A stretch of 64,000 nt of DNA, taken from contig CAXRHT010000002.1 in assembly GCA_964230645.1 (NCBI GenBank), forward strand, positions 160,001 to 224,000, in the 5' to 3' direction. A program made the translations under genes and the position numbers. This document shows positions 15,100 through 29,344 of the stretch, one piece after another. Every line of letters begins with the position of its first letter. Within the stretch, counting starts at the first letter, position 1. This DNA comes from Bdellovibrionales bacterium (GTDB lineage: Bacteria; Bdellovibrionota; Bdellovibrionia; Bdellovibrionales; JAGQZY01). The notes under the pieces were generated by a model. That model was not told the origin of the DNA and searched no databases. It saw nothing but the letters and a program-made list of their open reading frames with translations.

Positions 15100-16133
15100 C
15101 AGAACCCGATATCAAAATCCCAAAAGTCCAAAGCGGCATCGGCCGCACTGCCGTCGCCTTTTCGGGCTTCCTGAATGAACTCATCAAAGTGCTTAGAATC
15201 ATCGGCAATCAACTGGATATTATTGCATTTATAAAGATGAAGGCGAATGAGAGCCCAGGGGGTCAGTAGGCCAAGGCTAAAAATAATGGCCAAAGCATTG
15301 GTAAAGAGTATTTTAAAATACTCCTGTGTCTCAAGCCTGGCACGAAAGTCAATGCCTTCAAGGGAGCTGCTATTGACCACTAGGTTTATGATTTTCGTCT
15401 TGTGAAATGCGGTGATATAAACAATTCCAGCACCTAAAAACACATAAGTAAGGGCCATGCCCACAAAAGGAGTGGCCTCTTTACTGATATTTCCTGTTAA
15501 CAAATAGGCCGCACCTCCCACAATCAGGGCAAGACAAACAACGATGAGGAGGTAGATAAGGCCCATCATAAAGAAAATGGTGAAAAAGTCCGTGCCTGTC
15601 GCATTGAACCTGAACTTTTTCTGCCCGTAATAACTATTGGATATTGTAAAGTGTTTGTGGCGACAGTAGGCCCAAGCCCAAGCTAGACCCAGACTACAAA
15701 GTGTGATTAATCCGGCGATAGAATAGTTTTTATAACTCGCTTTAAGGTCTCTTGTGAAATCAAAGCGCACATTCTTATAAGTGGTATTGGTGAGATTGAA
15801 AATAGAACCTTTAACAATGATCCACGGAAACAGCACAATAAAACAGACAATAGCAAAAAGACCGATGGAGTAGTGCAAAAGAGGGCCATAAAGGTAACAT
15901 AAGAAAAAGAAGCCAAGAATCAGGCGGCCTACAAGAATCTTTTTTGGATCAGCGGTATAATCAAATCGCCCTTCATTTATCAGAGTGTTGCCATAAAGGT
16001 ATTTCCTATTTCTAACTTTAGCCCAGGCTGAGTAAATTCCTAGGGTCACAATTGTGAGTAGAGTATTTACAATCCATATTTTAAAATACTCATTGGCGTT
16101 GCCTTCAAAACGCACCTTAAAATTTTCCCGCAT
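15099..16133 (-). CDS. YjgN/DUF898 family inner membrane protein
   Basis: FEGNANEYFKIWIVNTLLTIVTLGIYSAWAKVR signature. Confidence 0.9.
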   Translation of the reverse strand: MRENFKVRFEGNANEYFKIWIVNTLLTIVTLGIYSAWAKVRNRKYLYGNTLINEGRFDYTADPKKILVGRLILGFFFLCYLYGPLLHYSIGLFAIVCFIVLFPWIIVKGSIFNLTNTTYKNVRFDFTRDLKASYKNYSIAGLITLCSLGLAWAWAYCRHKHFTISNSYYGQKKFRFNATGTDFFTIFFMMGLIYLLIVVCLALIVGGAAYLLTGNISKEATPFVGMALTYVFLGAGIVYITAFHKTKIINLVVNSSSLEGIDFRARLETQEYFKILFTNALAIIFSLGLLTPWALIRLHLYKCNNIQLIADDSKHFDEFIQEARKGDGSAADAALDFWDFDIGF

Positions 16134-16159
16134 GCCCTTAGCCCTCCGCGCCCAAAGCC

Positions 16160-16272
16160 ATCTTGAGCGTAGTTCATAGTCATTCAGAGCCCAGCAATGT
16201 CATCCAGAGCCCAGCAATGTCATCCTGAGCGTAGCGAAGGATCTTAGGTCTTTCGCTTCGCTCAAGACGACA
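16160..16272. repeat. REP-like cluster 4
   Basis: Two degenerate GTCAT(T/C)CAGAGCCCAGCAAT units then the 55-bp doublet. Confidence 0.9.
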
Positions 16273-16458
16273 CAACTCCACTCGAGACGACAGGCCTTTC
16301 CTCAAAACACCACGTCTTCGTTCAACTCAAATTTTGCATGTAAGACCACTTTACTCAACGGGCTTTTGCCAGTCGGTCCCATTTTTTTAGATTTGAACGC
16401 ATTTTTTTAAAATTTTGAGCAATTCTCAAGGCTTTTAATCGGTGTAGAACCTCGATCT

Positions 16459-17001
16459 ATGGAATGGATTCGCTTGGTTCTTGATATTTTAATACTAGGG
16501 GTTTGGCTTCTTTATGCCCAGCTCTTTTATAAGAGCTGGAAAAGTAGTCGCACGCCACGCCTTCTAATTGGTGTGAGTAGTGACAGTAAAGGAGAAGATG
16601 TCGTCTACCTAACCAATTTGAGTGAAAAGACCATCCACGTCGACGAGATTCAGGTGCGTGATAGCAAAAACTCCTGCACAAATATCACAGCCCTTAAAAA
16701 TGAATTAGAAAATCGGGAGAAAAGTGAGTCTCTAATGGAAAACTCCTACCAAGGACCTTTAGCTCCTGGCAGCCTCCGTGAGATTCGAGGCGTAGGTCCG
16801 TTCATTGATCGCTTCAGTGAAAATCAAGGCGAGATTACACTGTGTGCCCTCGGAGTATATTCCGAGGAATTCAGGCATGTGGGTTTTAAACGGAAACTCT
16901 CCTATGAAAAAAAAGAGGGCAAGATTCGTCTACAAGCAAAAAATCCCACTCAAACCATTGAAGCTCAGTTTAAATCTGGAATCTGGGAGTCGAAACTTTA
17001 G
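16459..17001 (+). CDS. Hypothetical membrane-anchored protein
   Basis: N-terminal TM helix, 180-aa ORF. Confidence 0.65.
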   Translation: MEWIRLVLDILILGVWLLYAQLFYKSWKSSRTPRLLIGVSSDSKGEDVVYLTNLSEKTIHVDEIQVRDSKNSCTNITALKNELENREKSESLMENSYQGPLAPGSLREIRGVGPFIDRFSENQGEITLCALGVYSEEFRHVGFKRKLSYEKKEGKIRLQAKNPTQTIEAQFKSGIWESKL

Positions 17002-17070
17002 AAGGGTATAGGCGCAATACTAAGAAACCACACCCCTAAAAAAATCACTGAAAATATAATAATTAATCAG
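16998..17070 (-). pseudogene. Degenerate copy of the small membrane-protein gene at 18674-18850
   Basis: Encodes LIIIFSVIFLGVWFLSIAPIPF* but is preceded by an in-frame TGA and has no start; 48/55 nt identical to 18687-18741. Confidence 0.55.
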
Positions 17071-17351
17071 ATGTTGATCCTGTTGCGCGGAGTGTTGAGG
17101 TTGGAGCCGTTTCTCTGCCGGGTTTACTTAATTTTGTCTGTAAACGAAGGCTATGCATTAAAGTTTGAAAAAAGAGGTAAGGGTTTTTGAACTCAAATGA
17201 TGTGTTCTTTTTTTTGTAAGACCAGAAGTAAAAATCTTCTTGTTTTCGATAATATCCAAGCCATAGAATTAAAGTTCACTGATTGATAAACTCAAACTAT
17301 AGTAAGATCAAATGTTTAAATACTAGATCTAAAGATCTTCGAGAGGTGATT

Positions 17352-18596
17352 TTGTTTGATTTTTTAAAAAAACGATCTTCAGATATCACTCCTTGCAGCC
17401 GCCTATGGAATCAAATTTATATTAAATCTGGAAGTCGTTCCATCAGCAATTGTTGTTTTAGACCAGAAATAGAGGTTTCTCTGGATACCATTAACGAAAT
17501 GGGTCCTAATATTTTTAGTTTTCATCCAAAATCTGTTGCTGATAGAAAGCATTTTTTATCCAAAACCGATCTTCCTTCGGACTGCTCTACTTGTAAAATA
17601 AATTGGAATTCAAGTAAGAAGGTCATCCATAATGAATGGAGAAATCAGACCTTCTCCAAGAAGCAATTAAAAAGCTTAGAAAAAAAAGATTTGCTCAACT
17701 ATTTTGAATTTCATGTTGGTAGAACATGCAACCTCTCTTGTATTTATTGCAGTCCAACCCACAGCACAAAATGGCAAAAACTTTTAGGTCAAAAAATTGA
17801 AGACACCAGTGAATGGGATCAAGCAATCATTAAAAATTTTTATTTATATTTAGAGAATCGTTTAAAACATTCTACTCCAGAACCAATCCTCTTCAGTTTC
17901 GGTGGCGGGGAACCGTTCTTAAATGACAGCTTTTTTGAAATGATCGACAGAATAATTTTCATATACCGAAAGCACAACATGTTGGAAATCGAAAATAGAG
18001 TTCAAGTTATAAGCAATTTGAGCCTGCCAGAGAAAAAAATTGAACCTTTCATAAAAATTGCTCAGAAACATCCTAATTGGCACTGGATTGTCACTGGGAG
18101 TCTCGATGCTGTCAGCAGTGTTGGTGAGGGAATTCGACCAGGGCTTAGTGTTAAAAAGTTCCAAGATAATTTGCATCGACTGGCTTCGAGTCCTCCCGTT
18201 AAGACCTGGGTTCTTCCCTCGATAACTTCAATAAGTTTACCGGAGACTCCTGAACTACTTCGTTGGTCTCTAGATTTTATAGACGAACATAAACTTGAGG
18301 GCGAAGATTTCTCTTATTGTGCCAATTTGGTGACCACGCCACAGGAATTACACATTTCTACTCTTCCTCAACATTTTAAATCTGTTCTGGATGAATGCAT
18401 AGACACCATAAAAGGAACATCTTTAGAGAGAGATTCTTATTTTTTCGAAAGCTTGTATCCAATTATTGGGACTCGGCGATCTCCAGAAGACCTAACTCGA
18501 GTCACTAGATTCTTCAGGCATATGAGCCTAAAACAAAACAAAGACTATTTTGAACTCTTTCCTATACTCGATACAATACTGGACCCCAGACAATAA
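17352..18596 (+). CDS. Radical SAM protein with N-terminal twitch-like Cys cluster
   Basis: CNLSCIYC, GGGEP, N-terminal C...CC...CxxC; SD GAGGTG before TTG (ORF open from 17283); AT-rich. Confidence 0.85.
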   Translation: MFDFLKKRSSDITPCSRLWNQIYIKSGSRSISNCCFRPEIEVSLDTINEMGPNIFSFHPKSVADRKHFLSKTDLPSDCSTCKINWNSSKKVIHNEWRNQTFSKKQLKSLEKKDLLNYFEFHVGRTCNLSCIYCSPTHSTKWQKLLGQKIEDTSEWDQAIIKNFYLYLENRLKHSTPEPILFSFGGGEPFLNDSFFEMIDRIIFIYRKHNMLEIENRVQVISNLSLPEKKIEPFIKIAQKHPNWHWIVTGSLDAVSSVGEGIRPGLSVKKFQDNLHRLASSPPVKTWVLPSITSISLPETPELLRWSLDFIDEHKLEGEDFSYCANLVTTPQELHISTLPQHFKSVLDECIDTIKGTSLERDSYFFESLYPIIGTRRSPEDLTRVTRFFRHMSLKQNKDYFELFPILDTILDPRQ

Positions 18597-18928: not shown

Positions 18929-19897
18929 TTACAAACTAAAATCATCGAGAGCAAAATAGGTGAAGATCACGTCAGCACCGGCTCGTTTAATGCTTAGAAG
19001 CATCTCTCCCACCGCTTTTTTCTCATCCAGCCAGCCTTTTTCACTAGCCGCTTTGATCATGGCGTACTCACCACTCACATTGTAAGCGGCAATGGGGAGT
19101 TGGGAATGATTTTTAAGGTCTGTGATTATATCTAAGTAGGGAAGAGCTGGCTTCACCATTAAAATGTCTGCGCCCTCTTGCTCATCAAGGCTGGCCTCCA
19201 GTAAGGCTTCTTTTTTACTGGCAGGATCCATTTGATAGGTTTTCTTGTCTCCTCCTCTAGGAGCTGAGTCGAGCGCCTCTCTAAAGGGACCATAAAAAGA
19301 AGAGGCGTATTTTGCTGTGTATGAAATGATTGAGGTATTGGTAAGCCCTACTTCATCAAGACCCTGTCTAATCTTAAGAACGCGGCCGTCCATCATGTCA
19401 GACGGAGCCACCACATCGGCTCCATTCATGGCGTGTAAGCAGGCCATTTTTTCTAGTATTTCAAGGGTTTCATCATTCAGGATTTCCCCCTCTTTTACCA
19501 ACCCATCGTGACCGTCACTGGAGTAGGGATCAAGAGCCACATCAGAGATCAAAAGGAGCTCAGGGAATTGTTTTTTGACCTCTCTTAAAGCGCGGCAGAG
19601 CAGATTGTCTGGATTAAGTGACTCACTGGCCTTGGAATCCTTTAAAGAGTCCTCAATAGCTGGAAATAGGGCGATCGCTCCCACACCTTTTTTAAGAGCC
19701 TTTTCGCAAAGGGGGAGAAGCTCATCAACAGAGTGACGAAACTGTCCTGGCATGGCGCCAATTTCTTGCTTTTGTTTTTTACCATCGACAATAAAAACGG
19801 GATAAACGAAGTCTTTATGGCTCAGAGTGGTTTCTTTTCTCCAGTGTCTAAAGGTTTCGTTTTTACGGTTGCGCCGAGGTCTTTTTAATAAATTCAC
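18929..19897 (-). CDS. hemB: Porphobilinogen synthase
   Basis: RPRRNR, DVALDPYSSDGHDG (Asp-rich, non-Zn type), SDMMDGR, FYGPFREA, MVKPA. Confidence 0.96.
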   Translation of the reverse strand: MNLLKRPRRNRKNETFRHWRKETTLSHKDFVYPVFIVDGKKQKQEIGAMPGQFRHSVDELLPLCEKALKKGVGAIALFPAIEDSLKDSKASESLNPDNLLCRALREVKKQFPELLLISDVALDPYSSDGHDGLVKEGEILNDETLEILEKMACLHAMNGADVVAPSDMMDGRVLKIRQGLDEVGLTNTSIISYTAKYASSFYGPFREALDSAPRGGDKKTYQMDPASKKEALLEASLDEQEGADILMVKPALPYLDIITDLKNHSQLPIAAYNVSGEYAMIKAASEKGWLDEKKAVGEMLLSIKRAGADVIFTYFALDDFSL

Positions 19898-19900
19898 TTT

Positions 19901-20275
19901 TCAAGAGTCCTTTTCTGCAGGAGGAATTTTTTCCACCAATCCATGTTTTAATCGGCATTCTTTCAAATGTTTTTTACCCACATGACCAGCCGCTAAAACA
20001 GCTGAGAGCATCATCGATAAGTCATCGGCATAGCCTCCTGGCAGAAAGTCGGGGAGTGCGTCAACTGGAGTGAGCAAATAGACCAGAGCTCCGAGAATGA
20101 CACTCTTATGGCGCCAGGAAACCTCAGGATCGTTGAGTGTTAAATAGGCGGCCTCAGCCATTGCCAGGACCTCTTTCCCAGCCCTTTGGGCATATTTTTT
20201 AATAATAGACCAGCGAAGGGATTCTTTTACACTCATTCGAGGTTCAAAAGTAGAGGAGAGCTTTGCTTGACTCAA
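19901..20275 (-). CDS. YkvA/DUF1232 family protein
   Basis: GALVYLLTPVDALPDFLPGGYADD. Confidence 0.85.
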   Translation of the reverse strand: MSQAKLSSTFEPRMSVKESLRWSIIKKYAQRAGKEVLAMAEAAYLTLNDPEVSWRHKSVILGALVYLLTPVDALPDFLPGGYADDLSMMLSAVLAAGHVGKKHLKECRLKHGLVEKIPPAEKDS

Positions 20276-20308: not shown

Positions 20309-21601
20309 ATGACAAGCACCACTATTCTGACTGTCTTACTTGTTTTCAGTTTCCTCATCGGTCGATTTCTTCGACGCTTTGAAACGCCCCACTTTGTCTT
20401 CTCAGGTGTGATTTATCTTATCATAGGTTTACTAGCCGGTTCTTATATGGGCCTTGGCTTACTTTCCGAACATCTGCTTTATCGCATGGACCCCCTCATT
20501 GATTTGCTCACAGGTTTTGCGGGTTTTCTTTTAGGGCTTCGAGTGAAGTTTCTTTTGCAAAACACTAAAACTTTTTCCAGTGGTGTGATCAACGGTCTTT
20601 TGGTTTTTGTAGCTATGTCCTTCACCCTTTACTTTCTCTCACCCTTGGCTGTGCAGTTTGAAAACATCGGCCTTGATATTGGTGATATGAATTTTTTCTC
20701 AGAAGAGCAGGCCGATCGCTTCTGGCTTTTTGGTTTTATCCAAGAGATCAATCGTCGTCAGTTTTGGTTCGCTCTGGGAGCCAGTGCCACCGCATGCTCA
20801 GCTTCACTTCTATCTTTAGGGATGATCTCTAAATTTAATAAATCACGCTCTGAAATCACTCGTGTGTTAAGTATTCTTGCACCCACCGGACAGGTCATTG
20901 CAGTCACTCTTCTAGGAATTGTTCTCGCTATGGCCAGTGGTGACACCACTGCCACCTCACTTCATATTTCAGTCACCGAATGGCTTCTTGCAACGATCAC
21001 CTCAGGGCTTTTGTGTGGAATCCTTTTCTCCCTTTTTATCGGCAAACAGTCTGATGAAAAGCGTATTATGCTCGCCGCCCTCGGCGCGATTATTTTTGCC
21101 GCAGGTCTTGGAACCCTATTAAGTGTTTCCTCAATGTTTGTTTGCTTTCTAACGGGCCTTACAATCAGTTTATTTTCCACCTATTCCGATGTGTTAAAGG
21201 AGAACCTGGTAAGAATCGAGGAGCCCATTTTCGTCCTTCTGCTTATTTTTGGAGGAGCCACTTGGCAGCCTGAAATCAACCGCTCTTGGCTTCTGCCAGC
21301 GGCTTATTTCGTTGTGCGCGCTATATTTCTTTCTGGACTTACCCATAGAATCCACCGCGTGCTCGGGCGACGAAAACTCTCTCGTCTTGGACAGGGACTA
21401 CTCGGACAAGACTTGATTGCTGTGGCCATAGCTTTAAGCTTAACCAAAGAATTTCCAGAGCTCGCCCAATTGTTTTTGACCACTATTTTGGGAAGTATCT
21501 TTTTAAACGACGCTGTGGCCAACTCACTGCTTAAAAAAGTAATATTGGATAATGAACAGGTCATAGAAGTAAAACCCATAGAAAAAGAAGGTGCATCGTG
21601 A
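20309..21601 (+). CDS. Cation:proton antiporter (CPA)-fold membrane protein, divergent
   Basis: About 12 TM helices with NhaP/KefB-like layout; first gene of the trk operon. Confidence 0.6.
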   Translation: MTSTTILTVLLVFSFLIGRFLRRFETPHFVFSGVIYLIIGLLAGSYMGLGLLSEHLLYRMDPLIDLLTGFAGFLLGLRVKFLLQNTKTFSSGVINGLLVFVAMSFTLYFLSPLAVQFENIGLDIGDMNFFSEEQADRFWLFGFIQEINRRQFWFALGASATACSASLLSLGMISKFNKSRSEITRVLSILAPTGQVIAVTLLGIVLAMASGDTTATSLHISVTEWLLATITSGLLCGILFSLFIGKQSDEKRIMLAALGAIIFAAGLGTLLSVSSMFVCFLTGLTISLFSTYSDVLKENLVRIEEPIFVLLLIFGGATWQPEINRSWLLPAAYFVVRAIFLSGLTHRIHRVLGRRKLSRLGQGLLGQDLIAVAIALSLTKEFPELAQLFLTTILGSIFLNDAVANSLLKKVILDNEQVIEVKPIEKEGAS

Positions 21602-22935
21602 AAATTGTGATTGTAGGAGCCGGCGATGTGGGAAGTTTCTTGGCCAAAGAGCTCTCCCAACGCTCTGAGGACGTAATTATCGTCGACACCAATGAACGCG
21701 CTCTGGAGAGAGTCGAAGAAAAAACAGATGTCATGACCTTTCGAGGCAATGGAACCTTTCGTAAAACTCTTAACGAAGTCGGCGTGGGTTCAGCGGATCT
21801 TGTCGTAGGTGTTACAAGCCACGATGACACCAATCTTGTTATCACCTCACTTGCCAATTCTCTAGGGGCAAAAAGAACGGTGGCTCGAGTCGACGCTCCA
21901 GAATTTTTTATGACCACAGGAGGAATCGAGAGGGGAGTGCTGGGTAGTTTTGCTATTGTGTGTGCCGCTCGTCTTGTGAGTGCCGAGCTTTTAAGACTTG
22001 TCAGGCAAACCGACCTTCCCTTTGTTGAGAACTTCTCATCAAATTCCATTTCCGTAGCCATGGTTGAAGTGACGGAAAACTGTCGTTACATAGAAAAATC
22101 AGGCTCTGATGTGGACCTTGGAAAAAGTGCTAAAGTCATTGGTGTGTTTCGTGACGGGGAGCTTCGGCGCTGTGCAGATCTTGCCCACCTTTATAATGGC
22201 GATAAAATTCTCTTTGCCTCAAAACTCGATAAACTACCCATTGCCATGAGACGCTTGGTGCAAATTCCCGGAAAAAAAGCGGTGATCATTGGCGGAGGGG
22301 ATGTGGGCTACCAATTGGCTAAATCCTTACAAGAGGTTGAAAACAGGCTCACCCTTATTGATGTGGATCGAAGGCGCTGTGAGTTCTTGGCTGATAAACT
22401 GGATCACGCCACCATCGTTCACGGCGATGGTACAAGCCTTCCCCTTCTTCAGGATGAGCACGTAGAAATGGCCGACTACACCTTGGCTGTAACTAAAGCC
22501 GATGAAGTGAATTTGATGTCCTCGTTGGTGAGCCAGGAGATCGGAGTGAAAAACTCCTACACCCTTGTGCATAGGCCGGGATACGCCCATGTGTACGAAC
22601 ATTTAGGGGTTAAGGGAACGGCCAGTGCGCACGAGTTGATCTCAAAAGCCGTAAACAAATACTTTCCCAATCAAACTTTGCTCACCGATGCGCCCATTCC
22701 AGACACTGAGTATTTAGTTGGAGAGTTTCAGTTGCCCCAGGAAATCAAAAATTCGACTCTTAAAATAAGAGATCTCTCCATTCCACCAGGGTGTTACTTG
22801 GTGGGGATTTCTCGCAAAGAGGAATTTGCTTTTAGCGACGGGGACTCTGAAATTTATCCCGGTGACATTGTCATCATTGTGTTGAAAAGAAGTGAACTCA
22901 AGGGACTTGAGAATATGTTCCGTAAACTAAAGTAG
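21598..22935 (+). CDS. trkA: Trk system K+ uptake regulator TrkA
   Basis: Two RCK domains, GAGDVG and GGGDVG. Confidence 0.92.
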   Translation: MKIVIVGAGDVGSFLAKELSQRSEDVIIVDTNERALERVEEKTDVMTFRGNGTFRKTLNEVGVGSADLVVGVTSHDDTNLVITSLANSLGAKRTVARVDAPEFFMTTGGIERGVLGSFAIVCAARLVSAELLRLVRQTDLPFVENFSSNSISVAMVEVTENCRYIEKSGSDVDLGKSAKVIGVFRDGELRRCADLAHLYNGDKILFASKLDKLPIAMRRLVQIPGKKAVIIGGGDVGYQLAKSLQEVENRLTLIDVDRRRCEFLADKLDHATIVHGDGTSLPLLQDEHVEMADYTLAVTKADEVNLMSSLVSQEIGVKNSYTLVHRPGYAHVYEHLGVKGTASAHELISKAVNKYFPNQTLLTDAPIPDTEYLVGEFQLPQEIKNSTLKIRDLSIPPGCYLVGISRKEEFAFSDGDSEIYPGDIVIIVLKRSELKGLENMFRKLK

Positions 22936-22941
22936 GTCTTA

Positions 22942-24402
22942 TTGCATAAAACGATCGTCGCCTACTATGTGGGGCAGCTTTTTATTGTACTTGCCTTTTT
23001 TATGATGGCACCCCTGGCTTTGGCCTATGTGGATAGCTCTCAAAAATCGCTACTGGCCTATTCTATCTCCAGCGGCCTTTCGATGGGCATTGGACTTTTT
23101 CTTCGATACGCCTGTCATCGCATGAAAGTAGACATTCGCATGGTCTCTCGCAAAGAAGCTTTTGGAATTGTGGCCATTGGATGGGTGGGCTCCGGTTTTA
23201 TCGCGGGCCTTCCTTTCTATCTAGAAGGAAGTATTCTTTCGATCAGCTCCTCAACCTTTGAGGCCATTTCGGGTTTAACCACTACAGGTGCGACTGTAAT
23301 CAGTGAGATAAACACTCTCTCTCGAGCCACTCATTTGTGGCGCGTTCTTTTGCATTGGATTGGCGGCATGGGGATTGTCGTTTTATTTGTGGCGATCTTT
23401 CCCCAGTTAGGACTTGGAGGAAAGCATCTTTTTAAAACAGAGGTAGCCGGACCCATTACCGAAGGTTTAAAACCTCGCATTAAACAAACCGCTTTGAGAC
23501 TTTGGTATGTTTATATGCTCTTCACTGCCACCTGTACGGGTCTTTTGTTTTTATCAGGCTTAAGCCTTTTTGATGCGATCTGCCACGCTTTCTCAACCCT
23601 GTCGACAGGAGGATTTTCTACTAAGGCTGCAAGCCTTGGAGCTTTTGATAATCCATTTGCGGAATGGGTAGTGATCTTCTTTATGCTCGCTGGAGGGATC
23701 AACTTTGGCCTGTACTACGGCCTTTTTCGTGGCCAGTTTAATAGACTTTTTACAAGTGCTGAGGTTCGATTTTTTGTGGCTCTTAATCTCGTCGTCGCGG
23801 TCATTATCTTTTTTGCGACCACTAGTCTTAACAGTGGCAACTGGCACGAAGAATTTCGAGACGCCCTTTTCCAAACTGTCGCTGTGACAACCACCACAGG
23901 GCTTATGACGGCTGACTTTGATATCTATCCCTTAGTGAGCAAATACCTTCTCTTTATATGTATGTTCATTGGCGGCTGTGCGGGCTCAACGGCGGGCGGG
24001 CTTAAAGTTTCAAGGGTTCTCATTGTGTTTAAACGCTGTATCCAGGAGTTAAGACTCACTCTGCATCCCCAAGAGGTCGTTAGCACCAAGCTTGGCAAGC
24101 AAACCGTTTCAAGACGAGTTCTCTCCTCTGTTTTTATTTTCTTTTGTTCTTATTTTCTTCTCTACGCCTTTGGAGTTTTTCTCATGTTCGTTCTCGGTAT
24201 GGACTGGGTGGGGGCTGCCTCCAGTGTGGTGGCATGTCTTTCCAGTGTGGGTCCAGGTTTTGGCTCAGTGGGTCCGACTCAGAATTATGAGTTCATCCAT
24301 CCTCTTGGAAAGTTTATCCTGTGTTTTTATATGATCGCCGGACGTTTGGAGATCTTTGTTTTACTGACTCTGTTCACCCCCTCGTTCTGGAGAAAAGGAT
24401 AG
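22942..24402 (+). CDS. trkH: Trk system K+ channel TrkH
   Basis: SGLTTTGAT, GGMGIVV, STGGFS, GGCAGSTAGGLK, GRLE. Confidence 0.94.
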   Translation: MHKTIVAYYVGQLFIVLAFFMMAPLALAYVDSSQKSLLAYSISSGLSMGIGLFLRYACHRMKVDIRMVSRKEAFGIVAIGWVGSGFIAGLPFYLEGSILSISSSTFEAISGLTTTGATVISEINTLSRATHLWRVLLHWIGGMGIVVLFVAIFPQLGLGGKHLFKTEVAGPITEGLKPRIKQTALRLWYVYMLFTATCTGLLFLSGLSLFDAICHAFSTLSTGGFSTKAASLGAFDNPFAEWVVIFFMLAGGINFGLYYGLFRGQFNRLFTSAEVRFFVALNLVVAVIIFFATTSLNSGNWHEEFRDALFQTVAVTTTTGLMTADFDIYPLVSKYLLFICMFIGGCAGSTAGGLKVSRVLIVFKRCIQELRLTLHPQEVVSTKLGKQTVSRRVLSSVFIFFCSYFLLYAFGVFLMFVLGMDWVGAASSVVACLSSVGPGFGSVGPTQNYEFIHPLGKFILCFYMIAGRLEIFVLLTLFTPSFWRKG

Positions 24403-27400
24403 ATGAGAAAGATATTTATACTCTTTATTCTCTTTTCAATCTGCATTGCCCTAAAGCAATTTGGGATTCTGAGTGATTCGCATAGCTCCGTTCTCCTAGC
24501 CATTGGCTTAGTGATTCTCTCAGCTTACACTCTTTCCGAGGTAGGCTCTTCTTTAAAACTGCCTCGTGTGACCGGTTATATTTTAACGGGATTGCTGCTC
24601 GGGCCCTATGCTCTAAAAATTCTTTCAACCAATGTGGTCAAAGAAATTGAGATGTTCAATACTCTTGCTATTGGACTTATTGCGATCACAGCAGGTCTTG
24701 AGCTTCACTTTAGTTCCCTTAAAAAAGTCATAGCCCCGATACTATCGACCACGGCCCTTAAGGTGATCCTTCTGGGCGTTACTTTTGTTGGCGGCACCTA
24801 TATTGCGAATCAATATGTCTATGATTTCAACCTTGGAATGGGGCTTCCCCTTATTTCTCTGGCTCTCATATTCGCGGCTCTTTCTGTAGGAACTTCTCCC
24901 GCAATTTCCATCGCTGTCATCTCAGAAATGAAGGCCAAGAGTCGTATGAGCCAAATGGTCATCGGTTCAGCCATCGTAAAAGATGTTGTGATGGTCATCA
25001 CTCTTGCTGTCGCTCTTTCCTTTGCCAAATCGGTTGCAAGTGGTGGTGGCGATATGGCCGGAAGCTTTATCCATCTTATGGAAGAGTTGGGACTGTCACT
25101 GGTAGCAGGGGTCATTTTAGGGACGATATTTCTTCTCTATATCCGCTTTATTAGACAAGAAATGTTTTTATTTATCGCTGCCATGATCCTGGGAACCGCC
25201 GAGATCAGTGAAGCTATTCATCTTGAATTACTGTTAGTTTTTATTGTGGCTGGTATTTTAGTCCGAAACTTTTCAAAAGACTCCCACTTTCTCCATGAAT
25301 CTTTAGAGAAGGTATCATTACCAGTCTTTGTGGTCTTTTTCACCAACGTTGGTGCAGGCCTTAATTTAGAAACAACCTGGCAATTTCTCCCAGTAGCAGG
25401 CATTTATTTTGGTGCAAGAGCCATCTCCTTTCTTCTAGGCTCGTGGACGGCTGGTAGTTTACACGGGGAGAGCTCAGGGATTAAGAAAAAAATCTGGCTC
25501 GGCTATCTACCACAAGCCGGAGTCACACTGGGACTCATCCAAATTGCAAGCCGAGACTTCCCTGAACAGGGCGAGCTTATCACCAATATCGGAATTGGGT
25601 TAGTCACAATAAATCTTCTCATTGGACCTATTTTTCTCCGAATGGTTTTAAAAGGGGAAGAACCCAAACAAGAAGAGTCTCCAGAGGAGGACAGTATGTC
25701 CGTAGAGCCAACCAAAGAGGTGAATGAAGACAATGTCGAGTCTGAAGCACCGAAAGCTTATGAAGAAGAGTTTCAACTAATGCTTCACTCGAAAACAGAA
25801 GTTTTCGAAGATGAATTTTTGGAAAAACATTTTCATGAGTTGGCGGGCAAATACTTTGAGATTTTTCGTAAACATCAAATTCTCCCACAAAAAAACATTC
25901 TAAAAACTTTTGTGAATGACCTGGATCAGATGAGTAACCTCAGTGAGAGGGAAATTGTCGCAAAAATTGACGATCATTTCCGTCGTATGGGAGCTAAGGG
26001 ACGAGATATCTACAATGCCATGAGCGAGTTGCAAAAAGAAATCGACTCGGTTCTGGTCTTAAAAAGTCGACCCATGCCTAAATCAGCCATCTATATACAA
26101 AAAGGCGATGGTTATTGGGTACGACTAAAAAAGATTTTTTCCCGTCCTCTTTATTGGTTCAACAAGAATCCCGAAAGAGATATTCCGCTAAGAAAACTGA
26201 CAAAATACAATCTTGAGCCACTGATTGGCTCCTTCACGGTGCAATTGATCAATTCCTGGTATCACCTTCTTGGAAAACATATCGAGATTTTTCAGCGCTC
26301 CCTTGAAACTCAAAACTTTGAAAATCATGAGATCGTAGCTAAAATTAAAAAAGAAAACGAGTTTTGGTTGAGAGCCATTCAATCCGACTTCAATAAGGAG
26401 TTTGGAAGACAAGCGACAAGCTGGGCCTCTCAGCTCGCCAAAGTGAACACCGCCTATATGTCTGACGGGCAGATCCGCTACTCACAAGTAGAGCCAAAAA
26501 TTACCGAAATGTTCGATCAGGCTAAAAACGACTCGCTAGCTTGGGAAGAAAAATTTGTTTACTGCCGAAATCGACTCAAAGTGATCGTACAATCAGCACT
26601 CCTTTCTCAAGCAGTTGAAAAACTCCTTGAAGAAAAGTTTTTCCAACCAGTGGAGGTGGCTCAAGACAACGCCGACACTCTTGTTTCAGAAGTTTTTGAC
26701 TACTTTAAAACCATTGAGAAAAAGATCAATGAAACCGAACAAGGAGACGAAGAGGCTTTTAAAAAGCTTTTGGATGAGACTCAAGCCTTTGCAAAAGAAA
26801 ATATCCAAGCCGATTTAAAATCAAAATACGTTAGAGGAAGCTTTCGTCTTCTCAATCGCGATATCTCTATTAATTTAAAGAAAAGTCTTCCCAAAGAAGA
26901 AGGGACTTTCCAAATTGCCTCCGAGAACACTTCACCGCATCAAGTGCAGAGCCCCTCTGAGATTGTGGTTAAAAAAATCAACCTGCATGAACTCTTTGAG
27001 CAAAGTATTTTAATAAACTTTCTTCCAGTCATTGAAGAGCGTATAGAAGGAGTGTCTAATTATCTTGAATCTCTTTTAATGGAAATGGAGCAGGCTTTTT
27101 CGATCATCACTTATAGTCTAGAGTCTCAGATCGGGGGAGAGGATTCCGAAGTCGACCCTGATGAGATGACTGAAAGTTTGCAGTCCTCTATTAGTGCCGA
27201 AAAAGAAAAGATTCAGGAGCTTTACGACGGCCTAATCGAATACATTCGCTCTTCGAATGAGTCGACAGAGAAACTCCTAGAAGAGTGCCAAATGGAAGTT
27301 CGCCAAGGAATCGAACGCTTTTCAGTGGTGCACACGGCTAAAAATCAGTTTCGCCAGAGAATTCAGTCCACTGTACAGAGCATTCGGGATCGTAAAGAAG

Positions 27401-28629
27401 TGGTCGATGGGGTTATTACGCGCTACTACCGTAAATTGAAAAAACTCGCTCTTCAGAAAAGCGAAAGGGATATCGATCGCACCTTGAAGAAGAAATTGGC
27501 CTCCCACACTCTTGATACGGCTACCGTGCGAGAGTTTATTAAACAGACCTATGATTTCAATCATCAGATTCAAGACCTTCCGAGGCTCTATTATAGGCTT
27601 TTCAGCCTTGATCCCATCCAAGATCGCCGCTTTTTTGTGGCCTATAAAAAGCGTGAAAAACATTTCAAAAATTTCGCTGGCAAAGAATCAAAAAGTGAAA
27701 GCCAAAAGATTCTAATCATCGGTGACCGAGGTATGGGTAAATCCTCGATGATCAATGTGGCTCAGATGGACATTGAAACGGAAAGACTGATTCGTATAGA
27801 AGGGGACGATTATCGCGGACCTTTGGCTGTGTTATCGCGAGCTATCAATGCGAAAAACTCTGCCACTTCCATTCTCTCAACTCTTAGAAAAACCCCGGCC
27901 ACGGTTATTATCGACAACGCTGACCAAATGCTCAATAGACACAACCTGAGTCAGTTTGAAGGGCTTTTTGAGGTGATTAGTAAGTCGCCTCAGAACACCC
28001 ACTGGATTCTTTCTATTACCAAGTTTAACTTAGAGTCTCTCGACCGGGCTTTTAAGATTCGTAGCCTTTTTAGTAAGATTATTGATCTTCATGAGATTAA
28101 TTTAGAAACGGCGAAAGAAGTTATTTTGACAAGACATCGTCTCAGTGGACTTGAAGTGGAATTCCCGAAAACTTTTGTGAGTGAATTTGCGCAGAGAGCG
28201 GGCCTGTCCACGGAGGATGAAATGTTTTTTCGTGTTTTATTTGAGCGCTCCCATGGTCATCTACGTCATTTGATTTATTTGTGGCTTAGAAGCCTTGAGA
28301 GCTCTGATGGGAAAACGATTCACTTGTCTATGAGTAAGTCTGTGGATCGAGGATTGCCAATGCTGCATGAATTCTCATTTCTACAAAAGCATATCCTCGC
28401 CCAGCTTTACTGCACCCATAGTGCCAGTGTACAGAAAATCAGTCACACCCTTGGTGTCTCCTATTCCGTTATCGATAACGAAACTCAGTATTTGGAGCAT
28501 TGCCACTTGATTCAGTCAAAAGGCATTGATCGCAGTGTGTTTGAAATCCCTAACCCCTTGGTTTTACCTGTGGGCGCTGAACTGAAAAAGGAGGGCATTC
28601 TCAATGCAGGATTCTACAACTTCCGCTAA
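24403..28629 (+). CDS. CPA2-type antiporter fused to a helical region, P-loop NTPase and C-terminal wHTH-like region
   Basis: N-terminal ~415 aa LPRVTGY, TSPA, KDV, PQAGV; Walker A GDRGMGKS at 27721; Walker B-like VIIDNAD. Confidence 0.8.
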   Translation: MRKIFILFILFSICIALKQFGILSDSHSSVLLAIGLVILSAYTLSEVGSSLKLPRVTGYILTGLLLGPYALKILSTNVVKEIEMFNTLAIGLIAITAGLELHFSSLKKVIAPILSTTALKVILLGVTFVGGTYIANQYVYDFNLGMGLPLISLALIFAALSVGTSPAISIAVISEMKAKSRMSQMVIGSAIVKDVVMVITLAVALSFAKSVASGGGDMAGSFIHLMEELGLSLVAGVILGTIFLLYIRFIRQEMFLFIAAMILGTAEISEAIHLELLLVFIVAGILVRNFSKDSHFLHESLEKVSLPVFVVFFTNVGAGLNLETTWQFLPVAGIYFGARAISFLLGSWTAGSLHGESSGIKKKIWLGYLPQAGVTLGLIQIASRDFPEQGELITNIGIGLVTINLLIGPIFLRMVLKGEEPKQEESPEEDSMSVEPTKEVNEDNVESEAPKAYEEEFQLMLHSKTEVFEDEFLEKHFHELAGKYFEIFRKHQILPQKNILKTFVNDLDQMSNLSEREIVAKIDDHFRRMGAKGRDIYNAMSELQKEIDSVLVLKSRPMPKSAIYIQKGDGYWVRLKKIFSRPLYWFNKNPERDIPLRKLTKYNLEPLIGSFTVQLINSWYHLLGKHIEIFQRSLETQNFENHEIVAKIKKENEFWLRAIQSDFNKEFGRQATSWASQLAKVNTAYMSDGQIRYSQVEPKITEMFDQAKNDSLAWEEKFVYCRNRLKVIVQSALLSQAVEKLLEEKFFQPVEVAQDNADTLVSEVFDYFKTIEKKINETEQGDEEAFKKLLDETQAFAKENIQADLKSKYVRGSFRLLNRDISINLKKSLPKEEGTFQIASENTSPHQVQSPSEIVVKKINLHELFEQSILINFLPVIEERIEGVSNYLESLLMEMEQAFSIITYSLESQIGGEDSEVDPDEMTESLQSSISAEKEKIQELYDGLIEYIRSSNESTEKLLEECQMEVRQGIERFSVVHTAKNQFRQRIQSTVQSIRDRKEVVDGVITRYYRKLKKLALQKSERDIDRTLKKKLASHTLDTATVREFIKQTYDFNHQIQDLPRLYYRLFSLDPIQDRRFFVAYKKREKHFKNFAGKESKSESQKILIIGDRGMGKSSMINVAQMDIETERLIRIEGDDYRGPLAVLSRAINAKNSATSILSTLRKTPATVIIDNADQMLNRHNLSQFEGLFEVISKSPQNTHWILSITKFNLESLDRAFKIRSLFSKIIDLHEINLETAKEVILTRHRLSGLEVEFPKTFVSEFAQRAGLSTEDEMFFRVLFERSHGHLRHLIYLWLRSLESSDGKTIHLSMSKSVDRGLPMLHEFSFLQKHILAQLYCTHSASVQKISHTLGVSYSVIDNETQYLEHCHLIQSKGIDRSVFEIPNPLVLPVGAELKKEGILNAGFYNFR

Positions 28630-29344
28630 TCAATTAGGAATGGAGTTCCCTGAACTGTCCATTCAGGTGGTCTCTTTTTTCCAAATCGGCTTTTTCGTGG
28701 TTATGGCCATTTTGGCCTACTATTTGAGTCGACGTTTCATGCAGATTCTTTCAAGCTCTGGAGTGATTGAAAAACGCTCTCTGACCTATCAAATTCTTAA
28801 CATCTCAACCTTTGCTTTTCCTGGAATTATCTTCCTCATTGGTCTGACCCGCGTTTCCCAAAACTCCCTTTTCGTTTCCCTTTTATTCTTTGTGATTTTT
28901 AGCATTATTTTCGGCTTTTCTTTGATTCAGCCGGCTAGAAACATCCTTGCCTCTCTTTTCATTACTCTAAGAGGGGAATTAAGAGTGGGCGATTACATTA
29001 GTCTTGCACAGGTGGAAGGAGAGGTTTTAGCGGTCGGCGCTTTTAACGTACAGATCCAATCAAAGACGGGATCTAAAACCTTTATTCCCAACTACCATAT
29101 TCTACAAAGCCCCTTTGAAATCCATGCGAAAAAAGGCGGGCCTTCAATAATGATAAATATTCCCTCAGACAAAATTTCTAAAAAAAATCTCGAGCGATTG
29201 GCTCATCTATGTCCTTTTAAAAGAAGAGGTTCGGATATTCGTATCTCAACTATTGATGGCAATCATAAGTTAACAATAGAAATCGTGAACAGACAGTGTC
29301 GCCCCTGGGTTAATAAATACTTTTCCAAACACTCACACAATTAA
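28604..29344 (+). CDS. Short MscS-family mechanosensitive channel protein
   Basis: 3 TMs, NILAS, LRVGDYI, EGEV, FIPN; reduced C-terminal domain. Confidence 0.75.
   Translation: MQDSTTSANQLGMEFPELSIQVVSFFQIGFFVVMAILAYYLSRRFMQILSSSGVIEKRSLTYQILNISTFAFPGIIFLIGLTRVSQNSLFVSLLFFVIFSIIFGFSLIQPARNILASLFITLRGELRVGDYISLAQVEGEVLAVGAFNVQIQSKTGSKTFIPNYHILQSPFEIHAKKGGPSIMINIPSDKISKKNLERLAHLCPFKRRGSDIRISTIDGNHKLTIEIVNRQCRPWVNKYFSKHSHN

Follow-up and report, generated by a model that had tools for sequence, protein, structure and literature searches.

The locus analysed here, positions 20309..29344 of the window (the whole stretch of 64,000 nucleotides from a Bdellovibrionales bacterium), raises the question of what purpose is served by a 1408-aa protein that joins an antiporter-like membrane domain to a nucleotide-binding module and is encoded in one row with a second antiporter-like protein, Trk and an MscS-like protein. 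All five ORFs were confirmed on the + strand, and the junctions from the first gene to the fifth were a 4-nt overlap, a 6-nt gap, a 0-nt gap and a 26-nt overlap, the last being that of the MscS-like gene start with the fusion stop. The tight arrangement described in the sequence-only reading (overlapping or 0-6 nt junctions) was thus borne out. The features are as follows.

20309..21601, + strand: CPA-fold partner gene, 430 aa (profile alignment, motif columns)
21598..22935, + strand: trkA, 445 aa, two RCK domains (NCBIfam NF007039 above cut-off)
22942..24402, + strand: trkH, 486 aa (PF02386)
24403..28629, + strand: fusion gene, 1408 aa, whole (ORF)
24403..25662, + strand: fusion aa 1-420, CPA2-type membrane domain (PF00999, motif G163-T-S-P166 / K193-D194 / R339)
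25663..27570, + strand: fusion aa 421-1056, acidic linker and helical arm of about 600 residues (structure model, fold search)
27571..28347, + strand: fusion aa ~1057-1315, AAA+ core and lid, Cdc6/ORC-like fold (model, fold search, motifs)
28360..28629, + strand: fusion aa ~1320-1408, winged helix (structure model, fold search)
28604..29344, + strand: MscS-like gene, 246 aa (PF00924, hydropathy)

A promoter scan remained at chance level (15 vs 12.9), and no plasmid match was found. No metagenome loci were found for one distant homologue, a viral fold search returned generic AAA+ matches only, and neither of two sequences was present in the protein atlas searched.

The fusion might have been a missed stop or a peculiarity of this assembly. 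In 7 of 12 other genomes of the same genus, however, it formed one open frame of 1404-1423 codons; the remaining five comprised two cut by contig ends, one without the CPA part and two with no match. Contigs of four runs from one study, two of which are possibly the window's own source, contained no indel and an identical fusion gene. In addition, 67 loci were retrieved from GTDB with two peptide patterns, both taken from the CPA domain alone, so that links to the ATPase, the partner and the MscS-like gene were not built in. The ATPase was fused to the CPA domain in 54 of these loci, mostly in Myxococcota, and the other 13 were cut by contig ends (10), interrupted (2) or CPA-only (1). Since the loci are mutually related, such counts overstate independence. 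An artefact of assembly or read-through, already refuted by these observations, has a negligible probability as the explanation of the fusion. The gene cluster is real and widely conserved; a literature search, beyond whose reach most subscription papers lay, found no description of it.

The N-terminal part of the fusion was recognised as the CPA2-like membrane domain that had been proposed. Residues 40-417 matched PF00999 (E 1e-30, 107 bits vs cut-off 26.2), and with the motif register set by alignment to NHE9, the domain possessed the features assigned to the CPA2 branch in PMC6181914, namely D at position 7, R/K at position 8 and no E at position 5 (never E, n = 63). Both D194 and R339 were retained in 63/63 fusions, and the K193-D194 codons were located at 24979-24984. 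The electrogenic signature, which combines D/E at position 6 and K at position 8, was absent, as shown by K193 (62/63) and R339, and motif positions 1-4 read G-T-S-P, not the K+-type L-S-S-T. The motif aspartate is described as essential and as found in 94% of CPAs, and the variants given in the accessible text of the same source do not include lysine beside aspartate together with arginine at position 8 (PMC6181914); transport by the fused subunit itself is therefore uncertain. In operon L203, no acid occupied the aspartate position. The TIGR00932 match of the fusion was below the cut-off, and no TrkA_N (KTN/RCK) match was obtained on it, its C-terminus being the AAA+-winged-helix module.

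CPA exchangers are regarded as homodimers under the control of KTN/RCK or similar domains. In the present locus, the first gene gave no match in the Pfam and NCBIfam searches, and just 2/59 of its homologues matched PF00999, but profile alignment with the fused CPA domain showed it to be a full-length homologue (hhalign 99.4%, 382 columns), a paralogue lacking the first helix. G194-Q195 (20888-20893) occupied the place of K193-D194, and R337 was retained. The ion-binding position, Q195 in the window, carried D in 2/59 and E in 7/59 homologues. Among more distant operons, the aspartate was kept in 8/8 (L133-L140) and in 2/17 (L189-L205), and the term "pseudo-antiporter" is thus true of this branch only. 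The partner lay upstream in 53/53 loci with at least 4.5 kb of upstream sequence; among all 61 loci, it was directly adjacent in 31 and separated by trkAH in 29. Furthermore, in genome G011 the partner gene and the CPA domain had been lost together from the operon, with the arm-ATPase and MscS retained. What genomic context supports in the earlier suggestion of a heteromer of two CPA-fold subunits is the joint occurrence of the two genes and their joint loss in G011; the first subunit here has no essential aspartate.

The trkA and trkH genes themselves were ordinary. The two-RCK TrkA, encoded beside TrkH, scored 333.7 bits against NF007039 (cut-off 293), and TrkH matched PF02386 with E 3e-69. 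In the genome, trkH was the sole PF02386 gene, and a search for Kup or KdpA found neither. They differ from the known TrkAH system in their insertion between the two CPA genes, where they always lay when present, in about half of the loci (29/53 with at least 4.5 kb upstream). At least eight gains or losses were forced on the tree. A connection of the ATPase with Trk, as envisaged at first, was not supported, trkAH being optional.

Residues ~450-1050 of the fusion were helical in a confident structure model (mean pLDDT 86.5), of which the pTM of 0.52 left the arm-to-ATPase geometry undefined. The helical arm supposed to comprise about 650 residues was accordingly present, though nearer 600. 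A single-sequence structure model (pLDDT 36) was of no use. In the fold search, the arm gave matches to generic or designed bundles alone and to no named family, and an internal duplication was weakly hinted at (probability 6.4% vs 0.8% for the reversed control). The arm was long and conserved across two phyla.

In the C-terminal module, the predicted elements of a P-loop NTPase were all located: Walker A GDRGMGKSS at aa 1107-1115 (27721-27747), the Walker B-like IIDN without the second acidic residue at aa 1169-1172 (ending at 27918), and the wHTH-like end as a winged helix in the model; R1288 was identified as a sensor-2-like arginine. An AAA+ core followed by a lid and a winged helix at the C-terminus gives the module the build of Cdc6/ORC proteins, which gave the best fold matches (Cdc6/Orc1 2qby_A, Z 15.3, rmsd 7.3, 274 aligned; ORC4, E 5e-9). 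It differs from them in its low identity (13-19%), its membrane tether, its acidic putative recognition helix, the lack of a replication context and the lack of the Walker B glutamate. Cdc6/ORC initiators carry a D-E catalytic pair in Walker B. Among the 63 fusions, the second Walker B residue was D in 33, N in 25, G in 4 and E in 1, the catalytic glutamate thus being missing in 62/63, and the Walker A lysine position held K in 37, R in 25 and M in 1. The "ATPase" is probably, as judged from these residues, a binding switch and not a motor. The eight Bdellovibrionales fusions all retained the Walker A lysine together with the box-VII-like and sensor-2-like arginines, and may thus be capable of real hydrolysis.

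STAND NTPases are switches with G-x-P in the helical domain and, after the winged helix, sensor repeats at the C-terminus. The module resembles them (MalT, NB-ARC, archaeal ATPases 2fna/2qen) in the order nucleotide-binding domain, helical domain, winged helix (Z 13.1, 13.0, 11.8) and in its D-D/D-N Walker B; its stand-alone relatives, moreover, carry G-x-P (144/147). It differs in that the fusion protein ends after the winged helix with no sensor repeats, the G-x-P proline is mostly lost in the fusions (12/63; G-H-L in the window), the NACHT, NB-ARC, nSTAND and AAA_16 matches of the window protein were weak and below cut-off, and the partner gene is MscS-like.

Bacterial MscS channels are regarded as autonomous valves. 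The only Pfam match of the last gene was the MscS beta-domain PF00924 (E 8e-13), and hydropathy peaks at 20, 64 and 90 indicated three hydrophobic helices. The protein aligned with solved MscS, MscK and MscM (E 1e-20 to 1e-18), with which it shares the three helices and the beta-domain, while departing from the family in its short C-terminal domain, its bulky pore helix and its overlap with an NTPase gene. P162 is followed by 84 residues, and the C-terminal alpha/beta domain PF21082 was matched (E<=1e-3) by 1/30 family members. The pore helix was not rich in Gly/Ala, as only 2/8 positions were small in the window protein; the mean number of small residues in these eight positions was 2.1 in 8 Bdellovibrionales fusion partners, 3.5 in 36 other fusion partners and 5.3 in 25 stand-alone partners. 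The protein had been taken for a truncated MscS, but these observations indicated a short type that is conserved and has a bulky pore helix, not a broken fragment.

The anticipated linkage between the ATPase and MscS proved almost inseparable in the neighbourhood survey. An MscS-like gene lay directly behind the fusion in 50/50 evaluable loci (46 by a first profile, 4 by a more sensitive one), and it lay directly behind the module whatever its N-terminus, even without an antiporter, in 30/30 and 35/36 loci. The gene of the NTPase family almost always overlapped the MscS-like gene. The conserved core is therefore the CPA-like partner, the fusion and the MscS-like gene. The ATPase and MscS trees (unrooted) had 38/66 splits in common with a distance rho of 0.81, an agreement expected of linked genes and no evidence of contact. 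Complex predictions that combined the ATPase module and a pair of MscS-like chains (0.52, 0.48 and 0.53; one control 0.35) were not used as evidence.

Taken as a whole, the cluster likely ties salt exchange to energy state or membrane tension. The mechanism that we tentatively prefer, at somewhat less than an even chance, assigns control of a heterodimeric cation/H+ exchanger to a nucleotide switch that is bound to a dedicated MscS-like partner. It is drawn from gene order, conservation, folds and motif residues, all of them genomic or predicted data. The two CPA proteins would pair as a heterodimer: transport, probably electroneutral, would fall to the fused subunit with its invariant D194, and the partner, aspartate-free here, would be structural or regulatory. 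The AAA+ module would bind ATP/ADP, hydrolysing it slowly or not at all, and serve as a conformational switch whose primary partner is the MscS-like protein, on whose oligomer it may be docked. With its bulky pore helix, the MscS-like protein of this branch would serve less as an open pore than as a scaffold or a sensor of tension. The 600-residue arm could convey the signal between channel and exchanger, and the switch might raise or lower exchange according to energy state or membrane tension. TrkAH would be a co-expressed, optional K+ uptake passenger and alone hints at K+ as the cation. If true, the heteromeric CPA pair and the MscS-overlapping NTPase family would represent a new mode of regulation for both exchanger and channel types. 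A wider version of this proposal, which we consider rather unlikely as a whole, holds that the Cdc6/STAND-like switch family is a dedicated cytoplasmic partner of MscS-type channels, and that here it physically couples a tension-sensing MscS-like protein to an antiporter heterodimer, one subunit of which transports while the other does not, giving a new kind of mechano-/energy-gated secondary transporter that is common in myxobacteria.

The strongest competitor, though unlikely, is that what the ATPase controls is an MscS-like channel that conducts, with the CPA pair only as membrane anchor and co-expressed exchanger and no signal passing along the arm. The stand-alone modules speak for it: they carry an unrelated anchor, in that their N-terminus was signal-like with a coiled region and mostly 3-6 predicted membrane helices (124/130 long representatives), and was combined with a retained Walker A lysine (142/147) and with MscS partners whose pore helix keeps its small residues. 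This N-terminal part matched neither MscK/MscM nor the fusion arm. Genome G011 likewise has ATPase and MscS without any CPA. On the other hand, so long an arm conserved in two phyla and the degenerate pore helix of fusion-linked MscS partners fit poorly, and CPA pairs without ATPase are likewise preceded by an MscS-like gene (L209-L211, and adjacent in 4/12 pairs: L143, L148, L150, L151). Against this explanation and also against the preferred mechanism stand 3/16 evaluable operons (L189, L192, L194) in which the CPA pair and ATPase had no MscS-like gene behind them.

These last operons, together with the gain and loss of trkAH, would suit ordinary co-regulation of independent transporters, in which the nucleotide module gates its own CPA domain in cis like KTN in KefC. 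Precedent exists in KefC/KefB (glutathione-gated K+/H+) and plant KEA3, where, according to PMC7349511, a CPA2 domain is likewise fused to a cytoplasmic nucleotide-binding regulator. That regulator is, however, KTN/RCK, in contrast to the AAA+-winged-helix module carried here by a 600-residue arm; the Kef motif is LSST in place of GTSP/KD/R, and a conserved divergent second CPA gene and an MscS-like gene beside the fusion distinguish the present locus from Kef/KEA3. As this explanation leaves unaccounted for the order of module before MscS in CPA-less proteins, the CPA-less form of G011 and the aspartate-free partner, we judged it improbable.

Slightly less probability was given to a signalling device built of transporter parts, in which the exchanger and channel folds would serve as ion or tension sensors and the STAND-like module would oligomerise and signal to another protein or, by its winged helix, to DNA. 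All three membrane parts indeed deviate at functional positions (K193 beside D194, the aspartate-free partner and the bulky pore helix), and AAA+-lid-winged-helix is the STAND/Cdc6 architecture, with G-x-P in the stand-alone family. The invariance of D194 and R339, the missing sensor repeats and the scarcity of the G-x-P proline in fusions argue against it, as does the putative recognition helix, whose mean net charge, a charge count only, was -2.4 in 8 Bdellovibrionales fusions and -0.3 in 36 others. A PADLOC defence-system scan gave no system match, only a weak HTH match.

Within the window's phylum, the fusion was restricted to one genus among the genomes sampled. Such a restriction suggested transfer from myxobacteria, which is not claimed here in view of the long branch and the lack of a root in the trees. 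The ATPase-winged-helix module belonged to a large unnamed family of 1552 representatives at E<=1e-30; it was present in 51/301 genomes of the window's phylum, in 108/251 sampled genomes of Myxococcota (the phylum of G340), and in 6/201 and 1/101 genomes of two other phyla. Halobacteriovorax marinus was found to be a cultured, named host of the stand-alone form.

The operon was found to consist of five ORFs arranged head to tail, with junctions of -4, +6, 0, and -26 nt. Its setting is as follows.

20309-29344, + strand: operon of gene 1 (CPA-fold partner), trkA, trkH, gene 4 (fusion), and gene 5 (MscS-like)
19901-20275, - strand: DUF1232 gene
18929-19897, - strand: hemB-like gene
16459-18596: lower GC (0.386 for 16001-18000), containing an unassigned ORF of 180 aa as well as a radical SAM gene product

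The two - strand genes diverge from the operon, only 33 nt separating the DUF1232 gene from gene 1, and the pair is kept beside it in several same-genus genomes. Family profile searches identified genes 2 and 3 as ordinary trkA and trkH, the latter being the sole PF02386 match in the genome, where neither Kup nor KdpA was found. The 1408-aa gene 4 product matched PF00999 at aa 40-417 and, weakly, AAA families at 1097-1228; the MscS beta-domain was the only family match of gene 5, and no family match was obtained for gene 1 in the profile search. PF00999 matches in this 3.8-Mb genome were confined to two genes.

The antiporter-ATPase fusion proposed by the sequence-only reading was confirmed to be real and not a missed stop, since it was encoded in a single frame of 1404-1423 codons in 7/12 other same-genus genomes; of the other five, two were cut by contig ends, one was devoid of the CPA part, and two gave no match. 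No indels were found in the contigs of four runs, two of which are possibly the source of the window's DNA. GTDB genomes were searched for two peptide patterns, both from the CPA domain, and 67 loci were obtained (nine Bdellovibrionales at 57-78%, the others mostly Myxococcota). The ATPase was fused in 54 of them; 10 loci stopped at a contig end, two were interrupted, and one was a CPA alone. Close homologues carry Bdellovibrionales names, and marine metagenomes from one study are listed as holding most of the window's DNA.

Among these loci, which are mutually related so that linkage counts are not independent trials, a gene 1 homologue was located upstream in all 53 with at least 4.5 kb of upstream sequence and in 61/67 overall, the remaining six having less than 1.6 kb. 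The two CPA genes were immediate neighbours in 31 loci, and trkA-trkH intervened in 29; where present, trkAH invariably lay between both CPA genes. Based on nine trkAH gains or losses on a 60-row tree, at least eight of them forced by supported branches, trkAH was considered optional. Behind the fusion, an MscS-like gene was present in 50/50 loci offering 1.2 kb or more of downstream sequence (46 by the first profile, four added by a more sensitive one). In genome G011 (96% complete), the operon ran from trkA-trkH through a 969-aa arm-ATPase gene to MscS; it contained neither gene 1 nor the CPA domain, and no close copy of either was found elsewhere in that genome. Arm-ATPase proteins lacking the CPA part, 955-969 aa long and with no membrane helix predicted, were observed (P0026, P0027, P0028; L026 2830-5739), their gene context being seen in G011 only.

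Gene 1 showed full-length homology to the fused CPA domain (hhalign 99.4%). When the eight-position CPA motif, as given in PMC6181914, was transferred by alignment through NHE9, the fused domain displayed G-T-S-P, no glutamate at position 5, K193, D194, and R339, with the last three conserved in 62/63, 63/63, and 63/63 sequences, respectively. Judged by these residues, the domain is of the CPA2 type, not Kef-like, with an unusual lysine, and by the rule in PMC6181914 it would not be electrogenic. Gene 1 has G194-Q195 at the corresponding site; its 59 homologues carry aspartate there in two cases and glutamate in seven, and R337 in all. The partner had the aspartate in 8/8 operons of one group (L133-L140) and in 2/17 of another selected for linkage (L189-L205), in which the fused subunit retained an acid in 16/17; an aspartate-less partner is thus not a general rule. 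The partner profile matched 103/251 genomes in the Myxococcota. CPA pairs without the ATPase also occur (L141-L152), preceded by an adjacent MscS-like gene in 4/12, and likewise in L209-L211 from the window's genus. Such ATPase-less units run from a long MscS-like protein (~560-590 aa, with an N-terminal extension) through a divergent CPA to a CPA with aspartate (L209 906-5102, L210 539-4769, L211 892-4993; L143, L148, L150, L151).

A predicted model of aa 450-1408 (63 aligned sequences; mean pLDDT 86.5, pTM 0.52) placed ~600 residues of long helices before an AAA+ core, a lid, and a winged helix, the putative recognition helix of which is acidic. In fold comparison, Cdc6/Orc1 (Z 15.3, rmsd 7.3, 274 aligned) and ORC subunits (ORC4, E 5e-9) matched best. 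Because archaeal STAND-like ATPases, MalT, RuvB, and NSF followed closely, the model makes the fold class clear but not the family; the module resembles both Cdc6/ORC and STAND proteins, and the motif tests of both assign it to neither. The Walker B glutamate was present in 1/63 fusions and the Walker A lysine was replaced by arginine in 25/63, which, in light of AAA+ chemistry, points to nucleotide binding rather than motor activity. The eight Bdellovibrionales fusions kept the lysine together with the box-VII-like and the sensor-2-like arginine.

The module profile matched 1552 representatives at E<=1e-30 (3240 at 1e-10); in genome surveys it was found in 51/301 genomes of the window's phylum and 108/251 of the Myxococcota. 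Most non-fusion members, annotated at source only as AAA or ATP-binding proteins, begin with a signal-like sequence and carry several membrane helices along with a coiled region; no relationship was found between this N-terminal part and the fusion arm. The MscS-like gene started 4-44 nt upstream of the ATPase stop in 30/30 loci and lay behind the ATPase in 35/36 further loci selected by ATPase score, and none was found behind 3/16 evaluable fusion operons. Taken with the fusion loci, this neighbourhood survey upheld the ATPase-MscS linkage suspected earlier.

In gene order, the ATPase-MscS link is the most stable and the CPA-CPA link the second, and the fusion unites both. The core was therefore read as one complex, a tentative reading, somewhat short of an even chance, that goes beyond gene order, fold, and motifs: the two CPA proteins would form a heterodimeric cation/H+ exchanger, probably electroneutral, whose arm would bear a nucleotide switch; this switch would dock on an oligomer of the MscS-like protein, which may have drifted from pore towards sensor or scaffold. 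Of eight pore-helix positions, small residues averaged 5.3 in stand-alone partners, and 3.5 and 2.1 in fusion partners. A channel under ATPase regulation, with the CPA part as a mere anchor, is an unlikely alternative. Plain co-regulation of these genes, with gating in cis, is improbable, and a signalling device is the least probable. For the exchanger complex, K+ may be the substrate, the sole basis being the optional trkAH. In its proposed working, the operon's system would come closest to KefC and KEA3, which are CPA2 exchangers fused to a regulator that binds nucleotides (PMC7349511), but it lacks the defining features of these two. The system is real and conserved, and apparently undescribed, no description having been found in a search of largely open-access literature; it would be categorically new if the contacts hold.

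The window's genome harbors twelve PF00924 (MscS beta-domain) genes and a second ATPase-MscS pair of stand-alone type (L031 8521-10932 and 7710-8534; G000:C3 ~79700-82900), whose Walker A is devoid of its lysine. As in L032 and L035, this pair lies directly behind genes resembling an NADH dehydrogenase (nuo) operon by sequence. Some MscS-like partners (L079, L093, L105, L083) carry long His/Ala/Pro-rich, lipoprotein-like N-terminal extensions.
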